Source: Gammaproteobacteria bacterium (lineage in GTDB: Bacteria; Pseudomonadota; Gammaproteobacteria; JASBUN01). Taken from it: a stretch of DNA of 64,000 nucleotides. The position numbers and the translations under genes are program-made. The stretch is from NCBI GenBank assembly GCA_030147845.1, contig JASBUN010000051.1, positions 33,146-97,145 on the forward strand, given 5' to 3'. The notes under the pieces are model-generated. The model worked only from the letters and a program-made list of their open reading frames with translations, was not told the DNA's origin and did not search any database. Shown one piece after another: positions 7,762-62,993 of this stretch; the first letter of the stretch is position 1; each line of letters starts with the position of its first letter.

Positions 7762-7968
7762 TTAGCTGCCCGAGCCATTGTGCGGCTGGCCGGCTGGTGG
7801 TGGCGTGGTGCTGCCACCGGGCGCCATGGGTGCACCACCAGGTGCGGCCGGCGGCGCCTGTTCCTGGGTCGCGCCGCTGCCGTTGGTCGATGGCGCCGGA
7901 TGGTCGTTACAGGCGGTAAGACCGGCGGCAGCCAGGGCGATGGTGAGCGCTATCAGTGGTGTTTTCAT
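7762..7968 (-). CDS. Small Pro/Gly-rich lipoprotein (68 aa).
   Basis: ATG at 7968 with GGAG 8 nt upstream. Sequence MKTPLIALTIALAAAGLTAC contains a lipobox and is followed by a low-complexity P/G/A-rich tail. Confidence 0.55.
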   Translation of the reverse strand: MKTPLIALTIALAAAGLTACNDHPAPSTNGSGATQEQAPPAAPGGAPMAPGGSTTPPPAGQPHNGSGS

Positions 7969-9757: not shown

Positions 9758-10369
9758 TTAGTTGTCGTTAATAAGCTGTTTGAGATCGTGCGTGTACGAC
9801 TTGGCCGGATCGGTGCCGCGACCGAGTAGACGTACATCGCCTTTGCGGTCGAACACGAACACCGCGCTGCTATGCGAGACTTCGTAGTTGCCGTGCGCGT
9901 CCGCCTTACCCAGCCCATAGGTCACGCGATAACGCTTGGTCAGATAGCGCAGTTCCTTTTGATCGCCGCGCAAGCCGATGAACTGTGGGCCGAATGCTTG
10001 CACATAACTTTTCAGTACCGCTGTGGTATCCCGCGCCGGGTCGACGCTGACGAACAAAATGCGCACTGCGTTGGCTTCGGCCCCTAATTTACGCAGCGCT
10101 TGCGCCAGTGTGGCCAATGTCGTTGGGCAGATGTCAGGACAGTTCGTGTAGCCAAAATACAGGACCGGAATTTTGCCGCGTAAATCGGACGCCTGCAGTG
10201 TTTTACCGTCTTGATCGGTCAGTGTAAATTTGAGCTGTGGCATGATGCCGGTGATATTGGTCAAATCCCACTTCTGCGGACTACTGCAACCACTCACTGC
10301 CGTCAGTAACACCAGTACTAGGCCGGCGATGCGTGCTACCCGAGGTGCTCTCGTCTTAGGATGTGTCAT
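9758..10369 (-). CDS. SCO1/SenC-family copper chaperone (thioredoxin fold, lipoprotein).
   Basis: Lipobox VSGC. CxxxC copper-binding motif YFGYTNCPDICPTT plus a conserved downstream His. Overlaps the upstream PCuAC gene stop. Confidence 0.85.
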   Translation of the reverse strand: MTHPKTRAPRVARIAGLVLVLLTAVSGCSSPQKWDLTNITGIMPQLKFTLTDQDGKTLQASDLRGKIPVLYFGYTNCPDICPTTLATLAQALRKLGAEANAVRILFVSVDPARDTTAVLKSYVQAFGPQFIGLRGDQKELRYLTKRYRVTYGLGKADAHGNYEVSHSSAVFVFDRKGDVRLLGRGTDPAKSYTHDLKQLINDN

Positions 10370-10848
10370 CACTGTGCCCCCACCGGCACGACCTTGAATT
10401 CGACCGTGAGTGCGCCGGAGTTTTTGAACTGCAGTTGAATCGGAACCGTATCGCCGACCGATAGTGATTGTTGGCGACCCATGAGCATGAGATGGTAGCT
10501 GCCTGGGCGAAAGTGCACCGATTTTCGCGGTTGTATGGTCAGCTTGGCCACCGGCGCCATTTTACTCATGCCGTCCGATTCGAAACTACGATGCATCATG
10601 ATTTGCTTGAATGAGCCGCTGATGGCGCCGGTTAATGTCACCGGCGCGGAGCCGTCATTGGTGAGCGTGAAGTAGCCAGCCAAAGGCAGGTTGCCCGGCA
10701 GCAGCCGCACCCGCGCCTGCGTGATGACTACGGAGGGTACCGGCGCAGCATTGGCGACAGCGCATGACAGCAGCAACGCCAACATCATACTACCGCGTCC
10801 GTGCGTACCGGAAATACTGACGTGCTTTTGCCAATGTATGCGCTGCAT
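10369..10848 (-). CDS. PCu(A)C periplasmic copper chaperone (DUF461).
   Basis: ATG at 10848 with GAGGAGA upstream. Signal peptide. Met/His-rich copper site (MMH...M...H.M), characteristic of PCuAC proteins that partner with SCO1. Confidence 0.8.
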   Translation of the reverse strand: MQRIHWQKHVSISGTHGRGSMMLALLLSCAVANAAPVPSVVITQARVRLLPGNLPLAGYFTLTNDGSAPVTLTGAISGSFKQIMMHRSFESDGMSKMAPVAKLTIQPRKSVHFRPGSYHLMLMGRQQSLSVGDTVPIQLQFKNSGALTVEFKVVPVGAQ

Positions 10849-11730: not shown

Positions 11731-11953
11731 CGGTGGTCCGAAACGGTGCGCGAGTCGCAACCGGCGTCAAGCAGCGCGCCGGGTGCTTTCCGGCGCAGAT
11801 GGTAGCAGAGCGTAGCGACCGCGTACACCCGGAGTCCGTCTCGCAACCCGCAAAAAAGCGTGCAAACGGCGTTCTTGAGTATGTATGCAGCCATGCTGGG
11901 TGCGCCGTTTCCGCGTCCGTGGCAGAATCTCCGCTCGACGCCGAAGGCGGTCC

Positions 11954-14900
11954 ATGAATGTGGTGCCCATGTCTAATCATTTTATCCATATAAAAGGTGC
12001 CAGGCAGAACAACCTCAAAGGCTTTGATTTACGGCTGCCGCTGCACGAGCTGATTGTCATCACCGGCGTCAGCGGTTCGGGGAAATCCTCGCTGGCTTTC
12101 GATACCGTATATGCGGAGGGACAGCGCCGCTACGTCGAGACCTTCTCGCCATATGCGCGTCAATTTCTCGATCGCATGGATAAGCCGAAAGTCGAGCGCG
12201 TCGACGGCATACCGCCGTCCATTGCGATTGATCAGACTAACCCGGTGCGTACCTCGCGCTCCACGGTCGGCACCATGACCGAGCTCAACGATCATCTGAA
12301 ATTGCTGTTTGCACGCGCCGCGCGATTGTATTGTCGCGACTGCGCGCAGCCGGTGACGCGCGACGATGCCAATAGTATTTTCGAACAGTTGCTTGGGCTT
12401 GCCGCAAACGCCGACGCCGCAATGGTGATGGTGACGTTTCCAATCACGGTACCGGAAAATTTTTCTGAACGAGAGGTGCGCGAGCTATTGGCGCGTCAGG
12501 GTTACGGGCGCGTACATCGCCGGCACGGAAGTCGACTGGATGTCGTACAGGATCGGGTGCGCGCTTCGGCAGCGCAGCGTGATCGCCTGGTCGAGGCGTT
12601 AGAAGCTGCGCTCAAATATGGCCAGGGCTACGTCAGTGTCTATCCCCTCGACGCCGATCGCAAAGCGGGGAAGCCGTGGCATTTTTCCGCTGCTCTACAC
12701 TGCGCCGAATGCGATATCGATTATGCCGAACCGACGCCGAATTTGTTTTCGTTCAACTCGCCGGTCGGCGCCTGCCCGACTTGCCGCGGATTCGGGCGCA
12801 CCATGGGCATCGATTACGACTTGGTCGTACCCGATGGTTCCAGGACTTTGGCCGGCGGCGCCATCAAGCCGTGGCAGACCGACAGCTATATCGAGTGTCA
12901 GCGTGATCTAACGCGCTTTGCGCGCCTACGTGGTGTTCCGCTCGAGGTGCCGTGGAACAAGCTCTCCAAAGCGCATCAACAATGGGTTTTGGAAGGCGAG
13001 GGCGAGTGGGACGATGGTAAATGGTACGGCGTGCGACGTTTCTTCGCTTGGCTTGAAACCAAAAGCTACAAAATGCACATTCGCGTGTTGCTGTCCAAGT
13101 ACCGCGCGTACGATGCCTGCCCTGATTGCGGCGGCGCGCGCTTGAAGACCGCTGCGCTGTTGTGGCGCGTTGGCGACGAGCACAATGCCGCGCGAGTTTT
13201 ACCCGTGGAACAGCGCTTTTCGCCGGCCGGTATCGGTTGTGCGAGCGCGCGCTTTCGCGCGCTTCCAGGGTTGACTCTGCATGATGTAATGCAACTTCCC
13301 ATCGAGCGCTGTCGCGAATTCTTTGAACATATCCATCTGCCGACACCCATGGACCAGGCGGCCGACGTATTACTCGGTGAAATTCGCGCACGACTTCGTT
13401 ATCTCGGCCAGGTAGGGCTGGACTATCTAAGTTTGGATCGGCAATCGCGTACGTTGAGCGGTGGCGAAGTGCAGCGCATCAATTTGACTACCGCGCTGGG
13501 AACTTCGCTGGTCAATACGCTGTTTGTGCTCGATGAGCCGAGCGTCGGCTTGCATCCGCGCGATATGCAGCGGGTGGTGAGCATATTGCATCAACTGCGC
13601 GATGCCGGAAATTCGCTGTTGGTGGTAGAGCACGACCCGCAAGTCATGTTGGCCGCCGACCGCGTGTTGGACTTGGGACCCGGGCCGGGCGAGCAAGGCG
13701 GTGAAGTGGTTTTTTTCGGCACGCCAAAACAGCTGCTGCGCTCTCGCCGATCGTTGACAGCCGATTACTTGGCAGGCCGCACGACGGTCGGCGGCGATGC
13801 TGGAAGGCGCGCTGAGCTACCGTCTTCGGCGCACGATTCAATACAAATTGTTGGGGCGGCTGAAAATAATCTCAAAGTCATCGACGTGTCGATTCCTTTG
13901 CATCAGTTGGTGTGCATTACCGGCGTTAGCGGTTCGGGCAAGTCGACCCTGATCCAGGACGTGTTGTATAAGGCGCTGCGCAAACTCAAGGGCCGGCCGG
14001 TGGAGCCCGCCGGCGCGCATCGCGCCATCCGCGGCCATGAGAGAATCGACGACGTAGTGCTGGTGGACCAGTCGCCAATAGGCAAAACGACGCGCTCCAA
14101 CCCGGCTAGCTACGTCGGTGCGCTCGACGCTATTCGCAAACTATTTGCCGCGCAACCGTTGGCGCGTGCGCGCGGCTATAGCGCCGGTACATTCAGCTTT
14201 AATTCCGGTACCGGGCGTTGTCCGACCTGCGGTGGGAACGGATTCGAACACGTTGAAATGCAGTTCTTGAGCGATGTCTATATTCGCTGCCCGGACTGCG
14301 ACGGCACGCGCTATCGTCCTGAAGTACTTGAGGTCAAACTACTGCCGTCCGCGGGCGGGATGGCGGCGCCGGTTTCGATTGCCGGCGTCCTAGAGATGAC
14401 TGTATCGGAGGCGGTGACGTGGTTCGCCGATCATGCCGAGATAATACGCGTTCTGGGACCGCTGCAGGCCGTAGGGCTGAGCTACCTGCGCTTGGGTCAG
14501 CCGGTGCCGACGCTGAGCGGTGGTGAGGCGCAACGGCTGAAGCTGGCGGGTCATCTCGCGCGCGCGCGCGGCGCCAAGTCCGACGGCACCACGTTGTTCA
14601 TTTTTGATGAGCCCACTACCGGCTTGCATTTCGACGATATTGCCCGTTTGTTGCGAGCCTTTGATGCATTGCTCGAACAGGGGCATTCGTTGGTGGTCAT
14701 CGAGCATAATCTGGACGTAATCGGGGCCGCCGATTGGATCGTTGATCTGGGGCCAGAGGGCGGCGATGCCGGCGGCAGCGTGGTATATGTTGGTACGCCC
14801 GCGGCGTTGACGCGCACTGGCGTTAGTCATACCGGCGTCGCGTTACGCCAATATCAGCGCGCACGCGGGCTTGCGGCATCGGCGGCTCAGGTGGTCGATG

Positions 14901-17575
14901 ACGGTAAGCCGGCATCGACATCGAGCACGCCCAGAGCCGGCACTGCAATCCGCATACGCAATGCTCGTGAGCATAATCTGCGCGGCATCGATGTTGATAT
15001 CCCACTGGACAAATTTACGGTTATTACCGGTGTCAGCGGCAGCGGCAAGAGTACGCTGGCGTTCGATATTCTGTTCGGTGAGGGGCAGCGGCGTTATCTG
15101 GAATCGCTCAACGCCTACGCGCGTCAGTTCGTACAGCCTTCGGCGCGTCCCGATGTCGACGCGATCACGGGAATACCGCCGACGGTGGCTATCGAGCAGC
15201 GTACCAGCCGCGGCGGCCGCAAGAGTACCGTGGCGACCTTGACCGAGATTTACCACTTTTTGCGGCTCCTGTTCGTCAAGCTCGGAACCCAATACTGTCC
15301 GGACTGCGATATACCGATCGAGGCACAGAGTGCGGAGACCATCCTAGCGCGCATCCTGCAGCAGTTTCGTGGCCGACAGGTCACGTTGTTTGCGCCTCTG
15401 GTGGTGGCGCGTAAGGGCTACTACACCGAGCTCGCGCAGTGGGCGGCCGGCAAAGGCTATGCGCAACTACGCGTCGATGGGGTGATGACGCCGACCGGGC
15501 AGTGGCCACGCCTGGAGCGTTTTCGTGAGCACAGTATCGATTTGCCGGTTGCCAGCATGGTGATATCGGCCAAGACCGAAGCGGAGTTGCGCGCTGTGCT
15601 CGCGCATGCCTTGGAGTTAGGTAAAGGCGTAGTTGAGGTACAGGCCTTGCAAAAGCGTCCGCGCGCCGCCGCTGCAAGCAACGCCGGTTGCGCCGTATTC
15701 TCGGTTCATCGCGCCTGCCCCGGTTGTGGACGCAGCTTCAAGGAGCTTGATCCGCGTCTGTTCTCATACAACTCCAAGCACGGTTGGTGCGAGCACTGCT
15801 ACGGCACCGGACTGCTGTTGACTGGATTCGATGCCGAGCAAAGCGGTGAGGAGATTCAATGGAACCAGTGGTGGGAAGGTGAAGCACGCACTTGTCCGAG
15901 CTGTGACGGTCATCGTCTGCGTGCCGAGGCATTGGCGGTGCGCGTTGACGGTCACTCCATCGGCGAGTATACGCGCTTGACGGTGCAACAGGCCGGAAGC
16001 GCGTTCGGTGCGTTGCGGCTACGCGGGCGCGCGGGTGAAATAGGGCGCGATATCATTCCTGAACTGCGTTCACGATTGTCCTTCTTGGTCGAAGTAGGGT
16101 TGGGGTATTTGTCGCTGGATCGTTCCGCGCCTACCTTGAGCGGTGGTGAGGCGCAGCGCATCCGTTTGGCCGCGCAACTGGGTTCCAATCTACGCGGCGT
16201 GTGTTACGTCCTTGATGAACCCACCATCGGTCTGCATCCGCGTGACAATCGCATGTTGCTGGCGACGCTCGGCAAACTAGCCGCTAAAGGCAACACCATT
16301 GTCGTTGTCGAGCACGACGAAGATACAATCCGCCGAGCCGAGCATGTCATCGACTTGGGACCCGGGGCCGGGGTCGATGGTGGTCGCCTGGTCGCTACCG
16401 GGACGCTCAAATCGATTATGGCGGCGCCGGATTCGGTAACCGGCCGGTTTTTGTCTATGCCGCTGGGTCATCCTCTGCAGCGGCAACGGCCAGTGGCCAC
16501 CAAGCAACCGGCCTTACGAATCGTCGGTGCTGATTTGCACAATTTACGGCGCCTAAGCGCACGCTTTCCGCTGCAACGATTGCTGTGCGTTACCGGGGTC
16601 AGTGGCAGCGGCAAGAGTACGCTGGTACGGCAGGTGTTGCGTGAAAATTTGCAGCGCTTATTGTCCCGCGGCAAACGTCGTAAGGCGGCGTCGGTACCGT
16701 TAGTCGGTTGCCGCGAATTACGTGGTTGGGAGATGATCGACCGCGTATTGGAGGTCGATCAGACGCCGATCGGCAAGACGCCGCGCTCGTGCCCGGCAAC
16801 CTATGTCGGTTTTTGGGACCAGGTGCGGCGTTTGTACGCCGACACCACTGAGGCGCGTATACGGGCTTTCGGTCCAAGCCGATTCTCGTTCAATGTCAAA
16901 GGCGGCCGTTGTCCGGCGTGCGACGGTCAAGGTGTAAAGCGCATTGAGATGAGTTTTCTTCCCGATGTGATCGTGCCTTGCGAGGTGTGTGCCGGCGCGC
17001 GTTTTACGCCGGACACCTTGTTGGTGAAGTACAAAGAGCGCTCCATCGCTGATGTCCTGGCAATGAGCGTAAATGAGGCGACCGATTTTTTTTCCGCGCA
17101 TGCCAAAATTCATCATGCCTTACAACTGCTGCAGGATGTCGGACTGGGCTACCTGCGCCTAGGTCAGCCAAGCCCGACCCTCAGTGGCGGCGAGGCACAG
17201 CGCATTAAACTGGTTACCGAATTGGCCAAGGCGCAACCGATACGCGGCGTCGGGCCGATTGGCAAGCATACCTTATATATATTGGACGAGCCGACCATCG
17301 GCTTGCATATGGCCGATGTCGAAAAGTTAGTGCGCGTTCTGCATCGCTTGGTGGATGCAGGCAATACCGTGCTGGTTATCGAGCATAATCTGGACGTCGT
17401 TGCCGAGGCCGATTGGTTAATCGACTTGGGACCTGAAGGCGGTGACGGCGGCGGCCGCATCGTCGTCCAGGGCGCGCCGCAATCGGTCGCACAGAAACGA
17501 CGCTCGGCGTCACATACGGCATCCGCGCTGGCTCAATTTCTGCGTCAACGCCGTTGCCCTAAAGGCGGTAAGTGA
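11954..17575 (+). CDS. Tandem-duplicated UvrA-like ABC ATPase (about 1870 aa). It consists of two complete UvrA units, giving four nucleotide-binding modules, and looks like a single-chain UvrA dimer.
   Basis: Unit 1 (aa ~30-980) contains ARQNNLKGF, Walker [15 protein letters not shown], Zn modules (CRDC...[18 protein letters not shown]), signature LSGGE twice, and Walker B/D-loops. Unit 2 (aa ~1000-1890) repeats the whole architecture ([48 protein letters not shown] twice, [14 protein letters not shown]). Both units retain a UvrB-binding-domain-like insert (QGYGRVH.../[10 protein letters not shown]...). Start is the ATG at 11954 (AAGGCGG upstream); alternative ATG at 11969. Confidence 0.85.
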
Positions 17576-52303: not shown

Positions 52304-52506
52304 GCGCCGCGAACCCGGCGCGCTTGGTGGACGGTGAGTTGGCGCTGCCGGGGCGCGTTTCATATCCACAAACAAAACGCGGATTGGGAATAGCGTGGAC
52401 CGGTCAAGCGTCTATTCTATTCTCAGTGTGGACGGCGTAGATTTGTCAGCTTTAGGCTCAGTAGGCCCCGATGTAAACCCATAACTAGATGAGGAGAACT
52501 AAACCC

Positions 52507-52953
52507 ATGTTTCGAGTCATGCATTCTTTTTTCCTGGCTACCGTGCTTTTGGGTATAACCGTTGCGTCGCCCGTGCGTGCGGACGAATCGCATCCGTTCG
52601 CCACGGCACACTATGTGCTACAGGTCAGCCAGGATGATCCGGCGCGTTGGAAGTTGGCCATGAACAACGCCGTCAACTTGCAGCAGCATTATGGTCCAGA
52701 CAAGGTCGACGTGGTTATCGTCGCTTATGGCCCCGGACTGAAAATGTTACTCAAGAACGCCAAGACCTCGAAGCGGGTCGAGAGTCTGTCGGCTGCCGGT
52801 ATCGAGTTCGATGCTTGCCACAACACCATGAAGGCAATGGCCAAGAAGCTTGGTCATATGCCCAAGCTTACGCCGGCGGCAAAGGTGGTGCCTGGCGGCG
52901 TGATCCGGATTGGTGAACTCGAACAGAAGGGCTATTCCTACATCAAGCCCTAA
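52507..52953 (+). CDS. Secreted DsrE/DsrF-like (YchN fold) family protein.
   Basis: ATG at 52507 with GAGGAG 9 nt upstream. Signal peptide ...SPVRA. DsrE-like core with a conserved Cys in a DACHNT-like context. Confidence 0.55.
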   Translation: MFRVMHSFFLATVLLGITVASPVRADESHPFATAHYVLQVSQDDPARWKLAMNNAVNLQQHYGPDKVDVVIVAYGPGLKMLLKNAKTSKRVESLSAAGIEFDACHNTMKAMAKKLGHMPKLTPAAKVVPGGVIRIGELEQKGYSYIKP

Positions 52954-53391
52954 CGCGGATGCGTTGCAGCGGTGGTCCCATGGCGCCCGGTCGTAGGTGT
53001 TGGCGCGCTCGTGGGACACCGCATTTTCGGGTAATTTCTACCACTCCGCGCCGCCTTCGCCTATCGCCAGCCGCGCGCCCGCGCCGGCTGTAATCGGCGC
53101 ACTTCGATTTCACCGGGCAATTGATGCTCTCCTAGTTACACAACGAACCGCATGCCGGCTTCGCCGCCGAGCGCACGCTGCGCCTGCGCCGGTATGCGCC
53201 CGACATGGCGGCACGCGACCGTTACCCCCATCCGCCACAGCGGTGGTACTGCCGAGCGTTTGCCGGTACCGTAGCCACATGATGAGCGAGGAGGCCGTGC
53301 GCGGTTATCATCCGCAAAACAATATTTTTTAAATATATTATTATGTACGCATATCGTTCAACCGAATGCGGCCACGGAATAGACGTTTCCC

Positions 53392-55737
53392 ATGCAAAGT
53401 CAGCAAACCCCAATTTTGAAGGACATTGTTTTGATCGGCGGCGGACACAGTCATGTCGCCGTGCTCAAACGCTTCGGTATGCGGCCGCTGCCGGGTGTAC
53501 GTCTGACGCTGATTTCTCGCGACATCCTCACACCGTACTCGGGCATGCTGCCGGGTTATATTGCGGGTCATTATGGATTCGATGACAGCCACGTGGATCT
53601 TCGTCCACTGGCCCAGTTCGCCGGCGCTCGCCTCATTCACGACGCAATGACCGGCCTCGATCTCGAACGGCGCTCGGTCATGTGTGAGAATCGTCCGCCG
53701 ATTGCTTACGACGTGCTTTCTATCGACATTGGTTCGACGCCGCGAACCATCGAGGCGCAAGGCGCGGCCGAGTACGCGCTTCCAGTCAAGCCGGTGGCCG
53801 GCTTCCTTGCCGGTTGGAAAGACATCGAACGCCGCGCGCGGGCGGCGGGTTCGGGATTTCGCATTGCCATCGTCGGTGCTGGTGCGGGCGGCGTCGAATT
53901 GACGCTGTCGCTGCAAAATCGACTCGCACAGCACGGTAGTGCGGATAATGGCTCGTTGGCGCGCTTCGTATTGGTAACCAGTTCCGCTGAAATCCTACCG
54001 ACCCACAATGCTCGCGTACGTAAAAAATTTACCCGTATCCTTCGGCAGCGGCAGGTCGACGTTTACACCGGCCACTCGGTGGTGGCGGTCGAGCCCCATC
54101 AGTTGCGCTGCGCCAATGGCGAGCAGGTTGCTTGTGACGCAGTGATATGGGTGACGCAGGCGTCGGCACTCGAATGGCTGTCGCGTAGCGGCTTGGACGT
54201 CAATGAGGATGGTTTCATACTGGTTAACGATTTTCTCCAGTCGTCGTCACATGCTGACGTGTTCGCCGCCGGCGATGTCGCCACCATGATCAATCACCCG
54301 CGCCCCAAATCCGGCGTCATGGCGGTACGTCAGGGTCCGCCGTTGGCCGAAAATTTGCGTCGCGCCGTGGTTGGTCGGCGGTTGAAGCGCCTGCGCCCAC
54401 AACGTCACTTTTTGAGTTTGATCAGCACCGGCGACCGCTATGCGGTGGCGTCGCGCACCGGACTTGCGGTCGAAGGCGCCTGGGTGTGGCGCTGGAAGGA
54501 CCATATCGACCGCAAATGGATGGCCAAGTATCGCGAGTTGCCCGAAATGGGTGTGGCCCGCGGTCCCGCTATCGATCAACGCCTGGGCGATGGCGAGACG
54601 CTGACGGCAATCTCAGCGCTGGCCATGCGTTGCGGCGGTTGTGGCTCCAAGGTCGGCAGCACGCTTCTCAGTCGCGTACTGCACCAAGTGCATCCGGTCG
54701 AGCGCGATGACGTGCTGGTGGGGCTGAAGGATCCGGATGATGCCGCCGTGGTTGAAGTGCCGCCCGGAAAGGTGATCATTCATACCGTTGATTTTTTCCG
54801 TTCCTTTATTGACGACGCTTATATCTTCGGTCGCATCGCCGCCAATCATGCCTTGAGCGATATCTACGCCATGGGCGCCGAGCCGCAGAGCGCGTTGGCG
54901 CTTGCGACTTTACCGTTTGGTCTCGAGCGCAAAATGGAGCAGACCTTGTTCGAAGTCATCAGCGGCGCCATGGAAGCCTTGTCCGAGTCCGGCGCGGCCT
55001 TGGTCGGTGGTCATACCAATGAAGGCCAGGAGCTGGTGTTCGGTCTATCGGTCAACGGTTTGGCCGACCGTAACGACATGCTGCGCAAAGTCGGCATGCG
55101 ACCGGGCGACGTATTGGTGTTGACCAAGGCGGTGGGTACCGGCACTATTTTCGCAGCCGATATGCGCGCCAAGGCCAAGGGGCGATGGGTAGAGGCGGCT
55201 TTGCAAAGTATGTTGCAGTCGAACAAGGCAGCGGCCGAGTGCGTGCACCGCTACGGCGCGCGCGCTTGCACAGACGTTACCGGTTTTGGGCTGCTGGGTC
55301 ATCTGGTCGAAATGACCAAGCCATCGGCGGTGGATGCCGAGTTGTTCTTGGAGTCGTTGCCGATATTGGATGGCGCGACCGAAACCATTGCGCAAGGCAT
55401 ATTCAGTTCCCTGCAACCGGAGAACATTCGTTTGCGGCGCGCCATCGCTAATCTTTCCGAGGCAGCCGATCACGCCCTATACCCATTACTGTTTGATCCG
55501 CAGACCGCCGGTGGACTGCTGGCGTGTATCCCAGCCGCGAACGTGTCGGCTTGCATCGACGAGTTGCACGCGCTTGGCTATACGCAGGCGGGCGTGATTG
55601 GTATCGTTCGCGCCATGGGCGCCGGGCTTGAGCCGATTACGCTGCGGTTGCGACCGGCGCCAACGGAATTTGAGGAGCAGGATGACTTGGCGCCGCTTGG
55701 CAACAATCGACCTGCCAAGGCGCGCGCTAAGTCTTGA
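53392..55737 (+). CDS. selD: Bifunctional FAD-dependent pyridine-nucleotide-disulfide oxidoreductase (NADH-dehydrogenase-like) fused to selenide, water dikinase SelD (Cys-type). Candidate SenC of a selenoneine locus.
   Basis: N-terminal ~390 aa carry Rossmann motifs (VLIGGGHSH, IAIVGAGAGG, FAAGDVA). The SelD domain starts ~aa 400 with LAMRCGGCGSKVG (the catalytic Cys of a non-Sec SelD) and has the PurM-like fold (VGG HTNEG..., GFGLLGHL). Confidence 0.85.
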   Translation: MQSQQTPILKDIVLIGGGHSHVAVLKRFGMRPLPGVRLTLISRDILTPYSGMLPGYIAGHYGFDDSHVDLRPLAQFAGARLIHDAMTGLDLERRSVMCENRPPIAYDVLSIDIGSTPRTIEAQGAAEYALPVKPVAGFLAGWKDIERRARAAGSGFRIAIVGAGAGGVELTLSLQNRLAQHGSADNGSLARFVLVTSSAEILPTHNARVRKKFTRILRQRQVDVYTGHSVVAVEPHQLRCANGEQVACDAVIWVTQASALEWLSRSGLDVNEDGFILVNDFLQSSSHADVFAAGDVATMINHPRPKSGVMAVRQGPPLAENLRRAVVGRRLKRLRPQRHFLSLISTGDRYAVASRTGLAVEGAWVWRWKDHIDRKWMAKYRELPEMGVARGPAIDQRLGDGETLTAISALAMRCGGCGSKVGSTLLSRVLHQVHPVERDDVLVGLKDPDDAAVVEVPPGKVIIHTVDFFRSFIDDAYIFGRIAANHALSDIYAMGAEPQSALALATLPFGLERKMEQTLFEVISGAMEALSESGAALVGGHTNEGQELVFGLSVNGLADRNDMLRKVGMRPGDVLVLTKAVGTGTIFAADMRAKAKGRWVEAALQSMLQSNKAAAECVHRYGARACTDVTGFGLLGHLVEMTKPSAVDAELFLESLPILDGATETIAQGIFSSLQPENIRLRRAIANLSEAADHALYPLLFDPQTAGGLLACIPAANVSACIDELHALGYTQAGVIGIVRAMGAGLEPITLRLRPAPTEFEEQDDLAPLGNNRPAKARAKS

Positions 55738-56686
55738 TTAGTTCATCGACGACACCAAGCACGGCGCCGGCTTCGCTCGCAGGCGTGAATCGGGGTGCTT
55801 TATCGGCGCATTGTTGCTGTAGGCGGGTGTAGAACGCAGCATCCTGTTCGGCGCGCCGTAGTAGTTCAGCCAAGGCGCGTTCGTCCTCGAGCGCGTAATA
55901 GCCGGCATAGTCCTCGCCCAGCAGTCCCACCGAGCCGTCTATGCGTGATGCGATGACCGGCAACCCCGCCACCACCGCTTCTGAGATTACATTGGCGCCG
56001 CCCTCCATGCGTGATGACAGTACCATCAGATGACAACGCCCCATCAATCGGCGCACCTGCCAATGCGGAATCTCGCCGAGCCACTGATAACGTGGATTAT
56101 CGGCGACTTCCGCCCGCACGGCTTTGGACCAGTCTTGGTCGTGGGCTTTGCCGGCGTGCAAGACGCGGATGCGCGAACTGTCCGGAAGATGGCGCGCAGC
56201 GAGCGCCGTACGCAGCGGATCTTTTTCTTCACGCAAATGACCGACCACGCAGACATCGAAACCGTGTCCGCGCCGCAGGTAACTGCTAGGCAGCGGCGCT
56301 GCGGACTGGTGGATGACCCGTACTTTGCTCCGAAACTGTGTCGGTAACGCCTCATGCGCCTTGTCATGTAATACCATTAATCGTTGTGCGCGCTCGATCG
56401 AGCCCAAAGTGACGGCGGCATCTGTGTGCATGAAACGGTAAAGATCGGTGCCGGTGAGTGCTACAATCAACGGGCGTTGCGGGTAACGTTCGTGAAATGC
56501 GCGTATGGCCGCTGCGCTACGCCAAGCGTGCAAGGCAATCATGGCGTCGGCATTGCCGCCATCGTAATCGGTGGCAATTGCGACGCGATGGCCGCCTTGG
56601 CGCAGGAAACGCGCCCAACGTACCGCCGTGGCGCGATTGCCGGCGCGAGCGCTCGGCCGCGCCGGTGTGATTAACGCAATACGCAT
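55727..56686 (-). CDS. GT-B fold glycosyltransferase, candidate selenosugar synthase SenB.
   Basis: N-terminus MRIALITPA. C-terminal GT1/GT4-type EX7E-like region (...GGANVISEAVVAGLPVIAS...). Sandwiched between the selD fusion and the EgtB-family gene. ATG at 56686; the stop overlaps the selD 3' end by 11 nt. Confidence 0.65.
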   Translation of the reverse strand: MRIALITPARPSARAGNRATAVRWARFLRQGGHRVAIATDYDGGNADAMIALHAWRSAAAIRAFHERYPQRPLIVALTGTDLYRFMHTDAAVTLGSIERAQRLMVLHDKAHEALPTQFRSKVRVIHQSAAPLPSSYLRRGHGFDVCVVGHLREEKDPLRTALAARHLPDSSRIRVLHAGKAHDQDWSKAVRAEVADNPRYQWLGEIPHWQVRRLMGRCHLMVLSSRMEGGANVISEAVVAGLPVIASRIDGSVGLLGEDYAGYYALEDERALAELLRRAEQDAAFYTRLQQQCADKAPRFTPASEAGAVLGVVDELIKT

Positions 56687-56703
56687 GTTTGAAATTTCAT
56701 TTC

Positions 56704-57993
56704 ATGGCCATTGATCGACAAATTTTACTCGACAATCTAAATGACGCGCGACTGCGTACTTTGGAACTCGTTCGCGGCCTCGATGCCGAGCAGCTGATGG
56801 GGCCGAAGTTGCCGACGGTGAATCCGTTACTGTGGGAAATCGGCCATTTGGCTTGGTTTCACGAGCACTGGATATTACGTCGCCTCGATGGGCGGTCGCC
56901 GCTACTGGCAAATGCGGATGCGCTCTACGACTCGACCCATGTCGCCCACGATACGCGCTGGAGCCTTGCGCTGCCGACGCTCGACGGCACGTTGGCCTAT
57001 ATGAACGCGGTGCATCAATCGCTCATCGATCGGCTCGATCATGAGCCGAGCGCGGACGAACAGTATTTTTACCAGCTTACCGCCTTCCACGAAGATATGC
57101 ACACCGAAGCATTTATCTACACGCGCCAGGCGCTGGCTTACCCGGCGCCATCATTCGCGGCTAGTCATGCCGATGCCGAAGCCGCAGGTGCGCTGCACGG
57201 CGATGTTGCGATCGCCGGCGGTGAACTGCAACTCGGTGCGGACAAGGCGCAGGAGTTTGTATTTGACAACGAAAAGTGGGCGCATCCGGTTGTTGTGGCG
57301 CCGTTTCACATGGCCAGAGCGGCGCTGACCAATGCTGAATACGCCGCCTTTGTCGAGGCAGGCGGCTACCGGCAGCAAGCTTTATGGACTAGTGACGGTT
57401 GGGCTTGGCGCGAAAAAGCGGGTTTGCAGTGTCCAGTATATTGGCGCTCGACGGCTGATGGTTGGCAGGTGCGGTATTTCGACGGCTGGCGAACGTTGGC
57501 GCCGCACCAACCGGTGATACACGTCAGTTGGTACGAGGCCGATGCCTATTGCCGTTGGGCAGGGCGGCGTTTGCCGACGGAGGCGGAGTGGGAGCTTGCG
57601 GCCGCGACAGAGCCGCACGGAGACGGTATTGCGGGAAACAAACGACGTTATCCGTGGGATAACGCACCGCCGACCGCGCGGCATGCCAATCTCGACGGTC
57701 GTCAGCTCGGTTGTGTCGATGTCGCTGCTTGTGCCGACGGCGACAGCGCCTATGGCTGCCGGCAAATGCTCGGCAACGTATGGGAGTGGACCGCCAGCGA
57801 CTTTCAGCCCTTTCCAGGCTTTTCGCCCGACCCGTATCGCGAGTATTCCGAACCCTGGTTCGGCACTCGCAAGGTGCTTCGCGGCGGTTCTTGGGCGACG
57901 CGTTCAAGAATGCTTTGGAATACGTGGCGTAACTTCTTCCCGCCCGATCGCAACGATATTTTTGCCGGTTTTCGTACCTGCGCATTGACCTGA
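56704..57993 (+). CDS. EgtB-family (DinB_2 plus FGE-sulfatase domains) C-S/C-Se bond-forming enzyme, candidate selenoneine synthase SenA.
   Basis: N-terminus aligns with EgtB (LLDNLNDARLRTLELV...LLWEIGHLAWFHEHW). Iron ligands HEDMH are present. C-terminal FGE-sulfatase-like fold (GNVWEWT...RGGSWAT). ATG at 56704, only 17 bp from the divergent SenB-like start. Confidence 0.8.
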   Translation: MAIDRQILLDNLNDARLRTLELVRGLDAEQLMGPKLPTVNPLLWEIGHLAWFHEHWILRRLDGRSPLLANADALYDSTHVAHDTRWSLALPTLDGTLAYMNAVHQSLIDRLDHEPSADEQYFYQLTAFHEDMHTEAFIYTRQALAYPAPSFAASHADAEAAGALHGDVAIAGGELQLGADKAQEFVFDNEKWAHPVVVAPFHMARAALTNAEYAAFVEAGGYRQQALWTSDGWAWREKAGLQCPVYWRSTADGWQVRYFDGWRTLAPHQPVIHVSWYEADAYCRWAGRRLPTEAEWELAAATEPHGDGIAGNKRRYPWDNAPPTARHANLDGRQLGCVDVAACADGDSAYGCRQMLGNVWEWTASDFQPFPGFSPDPYREYSEPWFGTRKVLRGGSWATRSRMLWNTWRNFFPPDRNDIFAGFRTCALT

Positions 57994-58028: not shown

Positions 58029-58766
58029 TTAAAGTATTTTCCATAGCCCCATGACGCTCACTACCATCAGGCCGGCACCGATCCAGCGGGTAAACACGCT
58101 ATGGTTTTTGAGTATGTAGTCGTGCGTCTTCAGTCCCAGGAAGTGGCCGATGGCGGCGACCGGCAGCAGAATCAAGGCGGCCGCCATATGCAGCGGCACG
58201 TCGAATACAATAAATGTCGCCATCTTGATGGTGACCAAAATGAACCAAAGCACGAACAGCGTATTGCGCAGTTGCGGCAGCGCCACGTTACGCATGAACA
58301 CGGCAATCATGACCGGCGCGCCACTGAGCGAGGTTCCGGTAATGTAGCCGCCGAGCACCAACAGCAGTTTGTCGACCCAGGCGCGGTGGCTGTGGATGGT
58401 CCAGTTCATCAGCCAGAGCACCGAGTAAAACAACGTCACTGAGTAGATGAACAACAGTAGCCACAGCGTCGGCAGTTTGATCAGGCCGAGCACGCCGACT
58501 ACGGCCGCCGGGACGACGTACGGCGAGCTACGGCGGAGAAATCCCCAGTCGACGTTGTGCAGGCGTGTGCGCAGCGTCAGTGTTGAGAAAAATAAAAGAT
58601 GGAGACCGATAATCGGCAGCCATAGCAGCGGTTCATCATTGATCAGGAGTAACAACGGCAAGCCCAAGGCAGCGCCGCCAAAGCCCAAGCCGCTGCGTAT
58701 AAAGCCGCTCCATACGAACAGCAGGGCAACGAGGCCGATTTGAAACGTGCTTAGGTCGTGCAACAT
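58029..58766 (-). CDS. TauE/SafE (TSUP, DUF81) family anion/sulfite-type exporter.
   Basis: Eight predicted transmembrane segments. Two TSUP repeats with the G-rich motifs SGLGFGGAAL and GGYITGTSLSGAPV. ATG at 58766; the track ORF starts at TTG 58823. Confidence 0.8.
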   Translation of the reverse strand: MLHDLSTFQIGLVALLFVWSGFIRSGLGFGGAALGLPLLLLINDEPLLWLPIIGLHLLFFSTLTLRTRLHNVDWGFLRRSSPYVVPAAVVGVLGLIKLPTLWLLLFIYSVTLFYSVLWLMNWTIHSHRAWVDKLLLVLGGYITGTSLSGAPVMIAVFMRNVALPQLRNTLFVLWFILVTIKMATFIVFDVPLHMAAALILLPVAAIGHFLGLKTHDYILKNHSVFTRWIGAGLMVVSVMGLWKIL

Positions 58767-59063
58767 GACATCAAGTAACGGTCGGTGATGTTGTAGTGCC
58801 ACAAGATGGAGCACAGTGCGCAAAAATGGAGCACATATTTATCCGCTGTGGTTGCACACGCGCGCCCCCCGAGTTGCCGCCAAGTCGAAGCGCGAATCGT
58901 ATCGGCTTGGGTGCGCTCAAGCATCTGTTTTTACGGATTTACCGTGACCTGCGAATGTAGAGCGTAGGAATGTTCGGGCAAACGCATCTTGCATTTTCAT
59001 AGCGAACAGCTTACATACGTAACTGAGATATATGAGATAACAAATCAGCGGGGGAATCCTATC

Positions 59064-60065
59064 ATGAATGTAACGCACCTTACACGGCGCACGCTGTTTA
59101 CACTTACGGGCGGCGTGTGCCTGTCTTTGCTGTTGAGCTTAACGCCTTACGCGAATGCTGGAGAAGTGATCAATTACGGTGTTCAGCCGGCGACCCAGCC
59201 GATTTATATCGCCAAGGCTCTCGGTCTTCTGAAACCGATCGAGAAACAATTCAAGGTCAAGATCGTACTGCGAAATTTCTCCTACGGTGCGCCCGAAAAT
59301 CAGGCCATGGCCGCCGGTGAATTGCAGATCGCCTCGGCGGGAATGGGGCCGGCAGTAGTCGCCTCCGCCCGGTTGCCGGCTAAGTTGTTGGCCATATCGA
59401 TCTTGGAACAGACCGCGCTCATGGTGCCTAAGGATTCGCCGATACATTCGGTGAAAGAACTGAAAGGCAAGACGATTGCGTTTCCCGGTGTTGGCTCGCA
59501 GCAATATCCGCTCTTGCTCAAGGCGCTCGCCGATGCCGGGCTGAAGGAAAGCGACGTCAAGCTGTTCAAGACCAAGGGCTCTGAAATAGGTCCGCTGCTT
59601 AAAAGTCATTCGGTCGACGCGGGTATCACGTGGGATCCACACGTATCCTACGCGTTGGCAAACGGCTGGGCGCGCGTGTTATTGAAAGCCGAAAAGATTT
59701 TGCCGATTTTGCAAGGCCACTATATCGGCAATGGTGAGTATGCCCGCATTGATTTTATCGAGAAGCATCCGAAGCTGGTGCAGGCATTGATGGACGCCAA
59801 CGTCAAGGCTATCGACTTCATTATCAAGCACCCGAAAAAAGCGGCGGCGATGTGGGCCAAGGAAGTCGGCATTCCAGAAAAGGTCGCTCTCTACTCGTTA
59901 AAGGAAAACATATCGGTGTATAGCTTGGACGTTGTGCCGCGCGCATCGGCCATGGATGCCTACACCGGGTTTTTGAAAAAGGCCGGTATTTTGCGTCCTA
60001 CCGACAACCCGAAGATCGCACCTTCATTTGCGGAAAAGGCGCTCGATGAGCTCAAAGCCAAGTAG
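59064..60065 (+). CDS. ABC transporter periplasmic substrate-binding protein, NMT1/SsuA/TauA (NitT/TauT) family.
   Basis: ATG at 59064. Signal peptide ...PYANAGE. SsuA/THI5-like fold. Confidence 0.8.
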   Translation: MNVTHLTRRTLFTLTGGVCLSLLLSLTPYANAGEVINYGVQPATQPIYIAKALGLLKPIEKQFKVKIVLRNFSYGAPENQAMAAGELQIASAGMGPAVVASARLPAKLLAISILEQTALMVPKDSPIHSVKELKGKTIAFPGVGSQQYPLLLKALADAGLKESDVKLFKTKGSEIGPLLKSHSVDAGITWDPHVSYALANGWARVLLKAEKILPILQGHYIGNGEYARIDFIEKHPKLVQALMDANVKAIDFIIKHPKKAAAMWAKEVGIPEKVALYSLKENISVYSLDVVPRASAMDAYTGFLKKAGILRPTDNPKIAPSFAEKALDELKAK

Positions 60066-60882
60066 TAGTACGCCGCCGCCGTCGGTCGCGATGGGTCGCC
60101 GTGCGGCCGGCGTCTCCGGCGCCGTGCTGCGCGGGGGTGGCAAGCGGCTGCTGCCGTTCGTCTATGCCGCCGTGACCATTGCGGTAATTTGGGAGCTGGT
60201 GGTTGTGATCACCAAGCCGGACGCGGCCATACTGCCGTCGCCGTGGCAGTCGGCGCAGACGTTCGCGCATTTGGTGGCCAACGGTGAGCTTGCGCGCGAT
60301 GTTTATGCCAGTCTGCGGCGGGTACTGTCGGCTTGGGCGGGTGCTGCGGTTATTGGTATTCCCTTGGGTTTGGTCATGGGGTATTCGCATCGATTCGAGA
60401 AGATCGCCGATCCGTTCATCGAACTGTTGCGTCCGATCTCGCCGTTGGCGTGGATCCCGCTGGCGATTTTGTGGTTTGGTATCGGCGAGATCGGCAAGGT
60501 GTTCGTGGTATTTATCGGCACGTTCTTCCCGATCGTGCTGACCACGGTAGCCGGCGTCAAGAGTATCGACCCGACCTTAATCAACGCCGGTCGTGTATAC
60601 GGCTGCACAAGTGGCATTTCGCTATTCCGTAAAGTAATCCTGCCGGCATCGCTACCCAGCATTGTGGTGGGACTGCGCATTTCCTTCGGTATGGGGTGGG
60701 CCGCTATCATCGCGGCCGAATTGGTCGCTGCACAATCCGGTTTGGGCTTTCTGATCGCCAACGGGATGGAAATACTACGCGCCGACGAAGTGCTGGTGGG
60801 CATGGTGGTGATTGGCGTGCTTGGCGTCATGTTTGATTCGGTTTTTCGCTACGCACACCGGCGTCTCGTCTGGACGGAGTAA
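60046..60882 (+). CDS. ABC transporter permease (SsuC/TauC-like).
   Basis: Six transmembrane segments. EAA-like loop (...LLRPISPLAWIPLAILWFG...). The start overlaps the substrate-binding protein gene 3' end. Confidence 0.8.
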   Translation: MSSKPSSSTPPPSVAMGRRAAGVSGAVLRGGGKRLLPFVYAAVTIAVIWELVVVITKPDAAILPSPWQSAQTFAHLVANGELARDVYASLRRVLSAWAGAAVIGIPLGLVMGYSHRFEKIADPFIELLRPISPLAWIPLAILWFGIGEIGKVFVVFIGTFFPIVLTTVAGVKSIDPTLINAGRVYGCTSGISLFRKVILPASLPSIVVGLRISFGMGWAAIIAAELVAAQSGLGFLIANGMEILRADEVLVGMVVIGVLGVMFDSVFRYAHRRLVWTE

Positions 60883-60885
60883 ATA

Positions 60886-61683
60886 ATGCTGGAATCCATT
60901 GGTAAGGCCCTGCGTATTCGCGGGCTGTCGAAAACATATTTTACGCGTTCGGGCGAAGCAGTGGAGGCGTTGTGTCCGGTGAATATGGATATTCGCGCCG
61001 GCGAATTCGTTGCCGTCGTCGGCCCATCGGGCTGCGGCAAGAGCACCTTGTTGCAGATTTTGGCCGGTATCACCGAGCCGAGCGCAGGCGAAGCCTACGC
61101 CGACGATACACGTATTCATGGCCCGAGCATCGACCGCAGTATGGTGTTCCAGAACTACGCCTTGTTTCCGTGGCTGTCTGTGCGCCGTAATGTCGAGTTT
61201 GGCCTGGAGCATAAGGGCGTACCGAAAGCCGAGCGCCGTGAAATTGCCGAGCGCTATCTGAAAATGGTCGGCTTATCGGCATTCGCTGACAAGCAGACCA
61301 ATGAGCTATCGGGTGGCATGAAACAGCGCGTCGCCATTGCGCGGGCGTTCGCCGTCGATCCGTCGGTCATTCTCATGGACGAGCCGTTTGGTGCCCTGGA
61401 CGCACTGAGCCGGCGCTTACTGCAACGCGAGCTGCTGCGCATCTGGCAGGAGCATCGCAAGACCGTGCTGTTCATTACCCACTCGGTGGTCGAAGCGATT
61501 TACCTGGCCGATCGTATTGTCGTCATGACCGCGCGCCCAGGACGTATTCGTTCCGAGATCGAAGTCGACCTGGAACATCCACGTGACAACACCTCGCCGC
61601 AGTTTGCCGAGTTGGAGCGTGATATTTATGCGCAATTGGATGAGGAATTGACGCGCAGTTTCGGTTTGGATCAGGACGCTTGA
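60886..61683 (+). CDS. ABC transporter ATP-binding protein (SsuB/TauB-like).
   Basis: Walker A GPSGCGKST. Signature LSGGMKQR. Walker B ILMDEPFGALD. H-loop. GGAG upstream of the ATG at 60886. Confidence 0.85.
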   Translation: MLESIGKALRIRGLSKTYFTRSGEAVEALCPVNMDIRAGEFVAVVGPSGCGKSTLLQILAGITEPSAGEAYADDTRIHGPSIDRSMVFQNYALFPWLSVRRNVEFGLEHKGVPKAERREIAERYLKMVGLSAFADKQTNELSGGMKQRVAIARAFAVDPSVILMDEPFGALDALSRRLLQRELLRIWQEHRKTVLFITHSVVEAIYLADRIVVMTARPGRIRSEIEVDLEHPRDNTSPQFAELERDIYAQLDEELTRSFGLDQDA

Positions 61684-61685
61684 GC

Positions 61686-62993
61686 ATGTTGCCGCGAGCG
61701 CAAATCGAGGTATCGTCCGTCGTACAGCAGGCACGCAGTGGCGCCGAGCCGGTCGTGGCTGAAACGCTGCAGCGCATTGGCACGCACGATCCCGAGGTGC
61801 GTGCATTCGTCCAAGTCGACGAGCGCGCGTTGGATGCTGCGCGGTATTGCGATCGCGCTGCAAGCGAACTCGGCCCGCTGCATGGTGTTCCTGTGGCGGT
61901 CAAGGAAGTTGTCGATGTCGGGGGTTTGCGCTGCGAGTGGGGCACTTCGATCCATGCCGGGCGCGTCCCGACGCGCGATGCGAGCGCGGTGGCGGCGTTG
62001 CGTGATGCCGGCGCCGTAATTGTAGGCACCACCGCATCAACTGAATATGCCATCGCCGATGCGCCTCCGACGCGCAATCCGCATGACGCCGCGCGTTCGC
62101 CGGGCGGTTCATCCAGCGGCTCGGCGGCGGCGGTGGCGGCCGGATTGGTGCCTGTTGCGATTGGAACGCAAAGCATTGGTTCGATCATTCGGCCGGCAAC
62201 TTATTGCGGAATATTTGGGCTGAAACCGACGTTTGGTGCAGTAAGCACCCGCGGTGGAATGCCACTGTCGCCGTGGTTGGATCACGTCGGTTTGCTGGCA
62301 TTGCACCTGGAGGATTTGCGCTTAGCCTGTGCCGCGCTGTTTCGCCTCGACCGCGACGATCCACACAGTATCGCCGTTCCACCTCCGCAGCCATATGCGC
62401 TGGCGCTACGCCCGGCGGTGGCTACAGTACTCGGGCCGTTCGATAATCGTGTGCAGGAGCCCAGTGCTACCGCTGTGCGTCGCGCGCAGGCTGCATTTCG
62501 CGACGCCGGCGTCATGACCGCGGACGTTACTTTGCCGCAGCAGGCGGAAGCGGCCATGAACGCCGTCGAAGTGCTGTTGTGCCATGATATGGCGCGCTTC
62601 CATGGCGACGATTACGACCGCCATGCCAACGCGATGAGTGTACGCGTGCAAGGCTTGATCCAAACCGGCCGTGATATAAAACCGTCGCAATACGATACCG
62701 CAGTGCTACAACGTACAACGCTTCGCGAGGCGCTGCTGACCAGTCTTGCCGAACAGGTGTGGTTGGCGCCGGCCACCGACAGCGTCGCGCCGCCGCGGCA
62801 GGAAGGCACCGGCTCGCCGATCTTGCAGGGCATCTGGACCCTGTGCGGCTTTCCCGTTCTTGCGGTTCCGTGCGGCCAAGTCGACGGTTTACCCGTGGGT
62901 GTGCAACTGATCGCCGCTCCGGGGCGCGAGGAGTTACTATTCGGCGCCGCCGCGTGCTTGACCGCAGCCATGCGAGCGTCCGCGTCCAGTTGA
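61686..62993 (+). CDS. Amidase-signature (AS) family amidase.
   Basis: Catalytic K(V)KE context. AS signature GGSSSGSAAAVAAG. The Ser-cisSer-Lys triad region is present. ATG at 61686. Confidence 0.8.
   Translation: MLPRAQIEVSSVVQQARSGAEPVVAETLQRIGTHDPEVRAFVQVDERALDAARYCDRAASELGPLHGVPVAVKEVVDVGGLRCEWGTSIHAGRVPTRDASAVAALRDAGAVIVGTTASTEYAIADAPPTRNPHDAARSPGGSSSGSAAAVAAGLVPVAIGTQSIGSIIRPATYCGIFGLKPTFGAVSTRGGMPLSPWLDHVGLLALHLEDLRLACAALFRLDRDDPHSIAVPPPQPYALALRPAVATVLGPFDNRVQEPSATAVRRAQAAFRDAGVMTADVTLPQQAEAAMNAVEVLLCHDMARFHGDDYDRHANAMSVRVQGLIQTGRDIKPSQYDTAVLQRTTLREALLTSLAEQVWLAPATDSVAPPRQEGTGSPILQGIWTLCGFPVLAVPCGQVDGLPVGVQLIAAPGREELLFGAAACLTAAMRASASS

Follow-up and report, generated by a model that had tools for sequence, protein, structure and literature searches.

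Does a locus that unites a selenophosphate synthetase fusion, a glycosyltransferase, and an EgtB-like enzyme make selenoneine, the selenium counterpart of ergothioneine (an antioxidant), or does it put the same cassette to another use? The initial annotation of the window, meaning here the whole 64,000-nucleotide stretch of gammaproteobacterial DNA that was analyzed, proposed a selenoneine (sen) locus made of three ORFs, and we found these ORFs exactly where it had put them, between positions 53392 and 57993 (Table 1). Family assignment relied on the NCBI curated models (NCBIfam) with their curated cut-offs, which senC, senB, and senA each exceeded widely, and the E-values of 1e-92 to 1e-158 exclude chance for the three assignments. 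Altogether, these scores and the active-site comparisons described below argue that the locus is very probably a senC-senB-senA selenoneine biosynthesis cluster of an uncultured gammaproteobacterium, its activity being predicted from the sequence.

Table 1. Coordinates of the sen genes and of the senB/senA spacer in the window
Feature	Position	Strand	Description	Family model
senC	53392-55737	+	781 aa; flavoprotein fused to SelD	TIGR03169 + TIGR00476
senB	55727-56686	-	319 aa; selenosugar synthase, GT-B Se-glycosyltransferase (predicted)	TIGR04348
senA	56704-57993	+	429 aa from ATG 56704; selenoneine synthase (predicted)	NF041186
senB/senA spacer	56687-56703	no strand	17 bp, between divergent start codons	

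The three genes are adjacent, as initially described, but they are not co-directional: senB is encoded on the opposite strand, so that senC, senB, and senA do not form one operon. The senB gene is convergent with senC, 11 bp being shared by the two 3' ends, and the starts of senB and senA are arranged head-to-head. The senA ORF opens at TTG 56689 (434 aa); the likely start is the ATG at 56704, backed by the family profile and by independent gene calls in Logan assemblies (429 aa), and with this start the initiation codons of senB and senA are separated by just 17 bp. This spacer, GTTTGAAATTTCATTTC, is A/T-rich and includes an 8-bp palindrome, GAAATTTC; neither senB nor senA has an obvious Shine-Dalgarno sequence in it. 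Moreover, a promoter scan of the spacer found no sigma-70-like site, and the promoters must sit inside the neighboring coding sequences. The corresponding spacers are estimated at 47 to 166 bp in 19 related loci versus 17 bp here. The closest relatives (52 to 60% identity) belong to uncultured Gammaproteobacteria and have the senC> <senB senA> layout in common, as conserved in loci L001 to L005; egtD adjoins the cluster in many of these relatives.

Neighboring genes were also considered as parts of the cluster, i.e., an upstream DsrE-like gene, orf111, a TauE permease gene, and a downstream ABC transporter with an amidase, and were rejected, since in 25 related loci none of them is a conserved neighbor of sen. 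The DsrE-like protein carries a signal peptide, and orf111 looks spurious and is not called by gene callers. The 438-bp gap upstream of senC gave no Rfam hit at an E-value of ≤1, and neither notable repeats nor remnants of EgtD were found in it.

The glycosyltransferase was compared with the SenB profile, as the initial annotation had proposed, and matched TIGR04348 at 430.4 bits (cut-off, 300), the next family reaching 121.8 against 400. SenB enzymes are recognized by the catalytic Lys158, the selenophosphate (SeP) pocket formed by N20, H58, R61, T83, T85, and R155, the sugar-selectivity residues N20/T23/E231, the EGGAxV motif, and E239. Compared with the Variovorax paradoxus SenB structures (8jjq and 8fbx; 203 bits), the window protein keeps N20, T23, H58, R61, T83, T85, D86, R155, K158, E231, and E239, i.e., all 11 residues defined by mutagenesis, and its EGGAxV motif is conserved. 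Two substitutions, V157E and H235N, are present in every gammaproteobacterial relative, Marinobacter loci included; V157E is therefore not distinctive, and its reading as a changed sugar specificity was dropped.

The senA product is composed of DinB_2 and FGE-sulfatase domains and is predicted to be a non-haem-iron selenoxide synthase, more precisely a selenoneine synthase. The proposed comparison of SenA and EgtB profiles came out in favor of SenA, with NF041186 at 526.4 bits (cut-off, 420), 166 bits above the EgtB model TIGR03440, which stands barely at its cut-off (360.1 versus 360). The accession initially cited for SenA, TIGR04344, is actually the OvoA model ovoA_Nterm and gave 138 bits against a cut-off of 400. 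In a multiple-sequence alignment with 8ryz, 8u42, and 4x8b, the active-site motif of the window SenA reads N-E-H-H-R-H-M-H-Y-Y-N-F-F-R, identical in all defined positions to that of the characterized SenA from V. paradoxus. It fits the published 17-position rule, xNEH--HRHxHYYN(F/Y)(F/Y)R, which covers the catalytic Tyr and the iron triad, the Y/N/F residues that bind hercynine, and the His and Phe/Tyr replacing Arg87 and Asp416 of EgtB. The gene is, in addition, linked to both senB and senC.

The borderline TIGR03440 score and the 39.8% identity to Mycolicibacterium thermoresistibile EgtB (compared with per-position identities of 45.3% to V. paradoxus SenA and 41.7% to OvsA) would suit a canonical ergothioneine EgtB, next to a SelD serving selenocysteine or selenouridine and an unrelated GT4 enzyme, and NADH-dehydrogenase-SelD fusions are indeed also known in selenoprotein-encoding genomes. 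We consider this explanation extremely improbable, given the lead of the SenA model, a glycosyltransferase that scores above the cut-off of the SenB equivalog model with its selenophosphate pocket intact, and the replacement of the thiol-binding residues of EgtB-I (R87->H and D416->F), with S/D changed to N/E as in all SenA. The window enzyme departs from the EgtB type I motif xSDH--RRHQHYYNWDR at five positions, including these two thiol-binding residues. Moreover, none of egtA/C/D/E, selA, selB, selU, and tRNA-Sec was found in the window, whose credible ORFs of at least 180 aa, except those at 1022-1564 and 9758-10372, were compared with Pfam or NCBIfam.

Among solved structures, the highest bit score was obtained with OvsA (320 to 330 bits versus 264 for V. 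paradoxus SenA), so that an ovoselenol (ovs) locus had to be tested as well; the initial annotation had not considered the ovs pathway, in which senB and senC likewise take part. OvsA tops these scores because V. paradoxus SenA is without a 38-residue segment that the window SenA, a "long" form, contains at about residues 319 to 356. In an ovs locus, the enzyme would be an OvsA that selenylates C5 of free histidine, and ovoselenol would be completed by an OvsM methyltransferase whose gene lies elsewhere. Such clusters carry the same senB/senC cassette, mostly in aquatic Gammaproteobacteria, their genes can lie apart on the chromosome, and most organisms with ovs are without egtD, which was not found in our window either. 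Nevertheless, the OvsA-defining residues M401, Q430, and A431 are Y, N, and F here, the exact triple that turns OvsA into a hercynine-using SenA, and the window protein scores higher on this OvsA-YNF mutant (330 bits) than on wild-type OvsA (320 bits). An OvsA identity was rejected on the motif xNEH--HRHxHYMQAYR, in which Met401, Gln430, and Ala431 are replaced in the window enzyme by Tyr, Asn, and Phe. In a neighbor-joining (NJ) tree, the window SenA groups with proteobacterial SenA homologues in a clade that leaves OvsA outside, and egtD adjoins nine of the SenA homologues of this clade (TIGR03438, 395 to 411 bits). Finally, RlmM was the only methyltransferase among the ORFs scanned as described above, in which nothing OvsM-like was seen. 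An ovoselenol locus is therefore highly improbable.

A selenoneine synthase needs hercynine, and egtD was sought by tblastn with the EgtD proteins of two relatives: none was found in the 64-kb window (best E-value, 0.49) or in the Logan extensions of ~9.7 and ~5.9 kb at its two ends (~15 kb), and the source of hercynine is hence unseen there. The absence of selA, selB, and selU holds within the window and that of egtD within the window plus these ~15 kb, but neither extends to the whole genome. No Rfam family was found in the window. With egtD not found in ~80 kb around the locus and yet colocalized in nine related loci, the cassette could deliver its selenosugar to a SenA homologue that acts on another imidazole or betaine acceptor, hercynine being absent, and that makes an undescribed selenometabolite. 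Related SenA homologues do vary at hercynine-contacting positions (N->T in L006 to L008 and F/Y->A in L010/L011). The window SenA is without such variation, its motif equaling that of the characterized SenA, and a linked egtD is missing from most known sen clusters; another acceptor thus appears very unlikely.

SenC combines an NDH-2-like FAD/NAD(P)H pyridine-nucleotide-disulfide oxidoreductase domain (residues ~10 to 380) with a selenophosphate synthetase, SelD (residues ~412 to 740), and contains the Pfam domains Pyr_redox_2, AIRS, and AIRS_C. It matched TIGR03169 (Nterm_to_SelD) at 508.6 bits (cut-off, 310) and TIGR00476 (selD) at 307.3 bits (cut-off, 125). A SelD is recognized by its active-site Cys (or Sec) and Lys, placed in a Gly-rich loop near the N terminus. 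The SelD here is of the Cys type, as initially stated, Cys417 and Lys420 aligning with Cys17 and Lys20 of Escherichia coli SelD (3u0o). The oxidoreductase/SelD-related paralogue family TIGR04369 ("fusion_not_SelD") was rejected, since its score of 483.2 bits stays below the curated cut-off of 700, and SenC is therefore a true SelD fusion. All the related sen/ovs loci examined carry the same fusion of the NDH-2-like flavoprotein with SelD, among them 15 relatives with a complete or nearly complete senC adjoining senB, a count that leaves out two further related loci cut by a contig end. In the literature consulted, no role is given for the N-terminal flavoprotein domain, and the published assays supplied Na2Se, bypassing this domain. 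We tentatively propose, as a possibility rather than a probability, that the domain is a dedicated selenium reductase dependent on NAD(P)H, which would make selenide from selenite, selenodiglutathione, or Se(0) and channel it straight into the SelD active site. If true, SenC would be a self-sufficient "selenium activation" enzyme. This reading is not specific to the window.

We propose the following model for the sen cluster. The flavoprotein domain of SenC would probably provide the SelD domain with selenium in reduced form (selenide), a speculative step, and the SelD half, judging from its family membership and the conserved Cys417/Lys420, would convert selenide and ATP to selenophosphate. 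As suggested by the conserved SeP pocket and Lys158, SenB would transfer the sugar of a UDP-sugar (most likely UDP-GlcNAc) onto selenophosphate, with hydrolysis of the Se-P bond yielding a 1-seleno-beta-sugar. SenA, whose active-site motif equals that of the characterized enzyme, would then use Fe(II) and O2 to join the selenosugar to C2 of hercynine, and the resulting selenoxide would eliminate the sugar to give selenoneine. For hercynine, the pathway would have to depend on an EgtD whose gene lies in another part of the genome. Transcription of senB runs against senC and away from senA; no single operon unites the three genes.

The locus is a genuine but ordinary copy of a known pathway. It adds one uncultured gammaproteobacterial lineage to >800 known sen clusters and 1,514 SenA sequences, and it advances no open question. 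Our study also illustrates that curated HMMs together with the published active-site motif tell SenA from its near neighbor OvsA, despite raw similarity scores to solved structures that favor OvsA.

Compared with the sen cluster of V. paradoxus DSM 30034 (Kayrouz et al. 2022, bioRxiv 10.1101/2022.04.13.486033; SenA, 8k5i/8ryz; SenB, 8jjq/8fbx), the window agrees in its three enzyme families, in the SenA motif (identical), in all catalytic and SeP-pocket residues of SenB, and in the Cys type of its SelD, although SenA identity is only about 45% and the SenB match 203 bits. The 38-residue segment of the window SenA, also present in EgtB-I and OvsA, is missing from V. paradoxus SenA. The head-to-head arrangement of senA and senB also occurs in betaproteobacterial relatives (L019 to L021), whereas senB and senC, convergent here, are co-directional in the betaproteobacterial loci. 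With the ovs genes of Halomonas utahensis and Marinobacter vinifirmus (OvsA, OvsM, SenB, and SenC; bioRxiv 10.1101/2024.04.10.588772; 8u41/8u42), the locus shares the selenosugar cassette with its flavoprotein-SelD fusion and the convergence of senB and senC (Marinobacter loci L012 to L016, L024, and L025), and the window NHISS is, like OvsA, a long form (41.7% identical). It differs by Y/N/F in place of the histidine-binding M/Q/A, by the lack of an OvsM-like methyltransferase among the scanned ORFs, and by the linkage of its relatives to egtD. EgtB type I (M. thermoresistibile, 4x8b) has in common with the window SenA the DinB_2 + FGE fold, the three-His iron triad, the catalytic Tyr, and the hercynine-binding Tyr and Asn; in contrast, the window enzyme shows R87->H, D416->F, S/D->N/E, and W415->F and is linked to SenB and SelD instead of egtA/C/D/E. 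Finally, NADH-dehydrogenase-like/SelD fusions (TIGR03169 + SelD), reported to be by far the commonest SelD fusions (Zhang et al. 2008; Mariotti et al. 2015, PMC4561486), have the same N-terminal flavoprotein and Cys-type SelD as SenC, without structural difference, but here the genomic context links the fusion to the sen pathway and not to selenoprotein synthesis.

The initial annotation had read three adjacent genes as a selenoneine (sen) biosynthesis locus, an interpretation that is supported here by predicted family membership, with the SenA, SenB, and SelD models all above their curated NCBIfam cut-offs. SenC matched both the oxidoreductase found N-terminal to SelD (TIGR03169, 508.6 bits; cut-off, 310) and SelD itself (TIGR00476, 307.3 bits; cut-off, 125), and failed the model for the oxidoreductase/SelD-related fusion that is "not SelD" (TIGR04369, 483 bits; cut-off, 700). 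SenB was assigned to the selenosugar synthases (TIGR04348, 430.4 bits; cut-off, 300), its second-best family lying far under its own cut-off. The third protein scored 526.4 bits with selenoneine synthase SenA (NF041186; cut-off, 420) versus 360.1 bits with EgtB (TIGR03440; cut-off, 360), in agreement with the proposed SenA identity, while TIGR04344, previously cited as the SenA model, actually describes the N terminus of OvoA (138 bits; cut-off, 400). Pfam domains were as expected, i.e., Pyr_redox_2, AIRS, and AIRS_C in SenC, Glycos_transf_1 in SenB, and DinB_2 with FGE-sulfatase in SenA.

Exactly three long open reading frames (ORFs) occupy 53392-57993; the first start and last stop originally reported both stand, with the correction that the middle gene lies on the opposite strand. 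The 3' ends of senB and senC overlap by 11 bp, and the senB start codon is head-to-head with senA. We place the senA start at the ATG rather than at the upstream TTG, since the SenA profile alignment begins at the fourth residue past this ATG and gene callers predict 429 aa on identical contigs of Logan metagenome assemblies; the senB and senA start codons are then separated by an A/T-rich spacer of 17 bp, the shortest when set beside the estimated 47 to 166 bp in relatives. No ribosome-binding site or sigma-70 promoter is recognizable at this spacer. Either both genes must have their promoter within the coding sequence of the facing gene, or their transcripts are processed or leaderless.

Coordinates of the sen genes and of other features (window positions unless a related locus or extension is named)
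Feature	Position	Strand	Length	Remarks
UvrA-like protein	11885-17575	+	1896 aa	UvrA interaction and DNA-binding domains, several ABC ATPase P-loops
DsrE/DsrF-like protein	52489-52953			clear N-terminal signal peptide
ORF	52997-53332		111 aa	Arg/Ala/Pro-rich, no family match, uncalled in Logan assemblies
senC	53392-55737	+	781 aa	
senB	55727-56686	-	319 aa	
senB/senA start-codon spacer	within 56684-56706		17 bp	GTTTGAAATTTCATTTC, palindrome GAAATTTC inside
senA from TTG	56689-57993	+	434 aa	
senA from ATG	56704-57993	+	429 aa	
TauE/SafE-family permease, then NitT/TauT-type ABC transporter (SsuA-like binding protein, permease, ATPase) and AtzE-like amidase	58029-62993			TauE/SafE permease convergent with senA
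senA of related loci L006-L008	~6580-7860			
TIGR04553 gene of related locus L006	9165-10046			
LysR, DsrC, PpoB2/DUF1326, and EamA genes; COX1/COX3/COX4_pro-type cytochrome-oxidase operon	10639-20621 of L028 (extension past the window 3' end)			

The ovoselenol (ovs) pathway shares senB and senC with sen and occurs mostly in aquatic Gammaproteobacteria, and it was therefore necessary to resolve whether the senA product could instead be OvsA, the histidine-using selenoxide synthase. A PDB sequence search indeed placed OvsA on top (8ux5, 330 bits; 8u41, 320 bits), ahead of EgtB-I (4x8b, 274 bits) and Variovorax paradoxus SenA (8k5i, 264 bits). However, 8ux5 is the OvsA-YNF mutant, wild-type OvsA scoring 10 bits lower, and the higher OvsA score is explained by a 38-residue segment (about residues 319 to 356) that the window SenA has in common with OvsA and EgtB-I and that is missing from V. 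paradoxus SenA. The published composite motifs are xNEH--HRHxHYYN(F/Y)(F/Y)R for SenA, xNEH--HRHxHYMQAYR for OvsA, and xSDH--RRHQHYYNWDR for EgtB-I, and the substitutions M401Y/Q430N/A431F turn OvsA into a SenA (bioRxiv 10.1101/2024.04.10.588772). In an alignment with OvsA, EgtB-I, V. paradoxus SenA, and 16 homologues of related loci, the window SenA reads N-E-H-H-R-H-M-H-Y-Y-N-F-F-R, identical to V. paradoxus SenA at all defined positions, and both carry Trp at the Gln405 equivalent. Per-position identity was 45.3% to SenA, 41.7% to OvsA, and 39.8% to EgtB-I, and a neighbor-joining tree placed the protein within a proteobacterial SenA clade, with OvsA outside. At the sequence level, an ovoselenol locus is thus excluded in favor of a selenoneine locus.

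Scanning one genome per species retrieved 25 SenB loci, the best being only 52 to 60% identical and coming from uncultured Gammaproteobacteria metagenome-assembled genomes (MAGs), with Marinobacter, Betaproteobacteria, and a myxobacterium next. The senC> <senB senA> layout recurs in L001-L005, senA and senB are head-to-head in 19 of the 20 loci having both, and the two-domain senC fusion is found in each of the 15 loci where the senC beside senB is complete or nearly so (two further loci are truncated by a contig end). One MAG (MFD03551.bin.2.100) has two sen loci, L002 (CAWEEB010000054.1) and L004 (CAWEEB010000010.1); in the latter, only two short pieces of the SelD half of senC persist (domain residues 2-48 and 265-377) beside an intact flavoprotein half, which may reflect an internal deletion or a pseudogene. 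Some homologues do not conform to the published SenA motif in its strict form: in L006-L008, Thr replaces the hercynine-contacting Asn (YY-T-Y-Y) despite an egtD between senC and senA, and L010 and L011, closest to the window SenA, read N-F-A, with senC not adjacent.

Aligned to V. paradoxus SenB (8jjq; mutagenesis data from PMC10891094), the window SenB keeps N20, T23, H58, R61, T83, T85, D86, R155, K158, E231, and E239. Glu replaces V157, and Asn replaces His235 in the EGGAHV motif, substitutions that are not distinctive since every gammaproteobacterial relative, Marinobacter loci included, carries them. In SenC, the essential Escherichia coli SelD residues Cys17 and Lys20 have Cys417 and Lys420 as their aligned counterparts, confirming a Cys-type SelD. 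Its N-terminal half resembles type-2 NADH dehydrogenases, SQR, and FSP1; the NADH-dehydrogenase-like/SelD fusion, known since 2008, is the commonest SelD fusion.

An EgtD-model gene adjoins the cluster in L001-L004, L006-L008, L020, and L021 (TIGR03438, 395 to 411 bits; cut-off, 291), which supports hercynine as the probable substrate of this SenA clade. No egtD occurs in the 64-kb window, nor in the further 9.7 kb at one end and 5.9 kb at the other that were recovered from Logan contigs of 100% or 99% identity, its absence near sen being normal. Beside senB, L006, L008, and the Marinobacter loci (L012-L016, L024, and L025) encode a putative binding protein of a selenate ABC transporter (TIGR04553, 381 bits; cut-off, 250); the window has none. 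Within the window, we found no selA, selB, selU, tRNA-Sec, or Rfam family, and to that extent the earlier remark that SelD lacks such a context holds.

The flanking genes (DsrE-like gene, 438-bp gap, TauE/SafE permease, and ABC transporter with amidase) were considered as cluster parts and rejected, none being conserved beside sen in relatives, where the transporter block is likewise absent. In the 52489-53391 region, the 438 bp between the DsrE/DsrF-like gene and senC contain no credible gene and no Rfam match. The best NCBIfam matches of the ABC permease and ATPase, both under cut-off, were SaoP and SaoA, components of a selenoprotein-associated ABC system. The DsrE of the window and the DsrC of the extension hint at sulfur-oxidation capacity in the host. 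Elsewhere, the 1896-aa protein, at roughly double UvrA length, resembles a UvrA paralogue that has undergone duplication or fusion.

The V. paradoxus selenoneine pathway has been reconstituted, and by homology, given the family assignments and the catalytic residues retained, SenC would convert selenide and ATP to selenophosphate, SenB would form a 1-seleno-beta-sugar from a UDP-sugar, and SenA would oxidatively couple the selenosugar to hercynine C2, the selenoxide then collapsing to selenoneine. Published assays supplied Na2Se directly, and a role of the fused flavoprotein in selenide production is plausible. The three proteins are also encoded in a 102-kb NCBI contig and in several Logan assemblies. 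With >800 sen clusters and 1,514 SenA sequences already catalogued, this locus represents a further instance of the known sen type.
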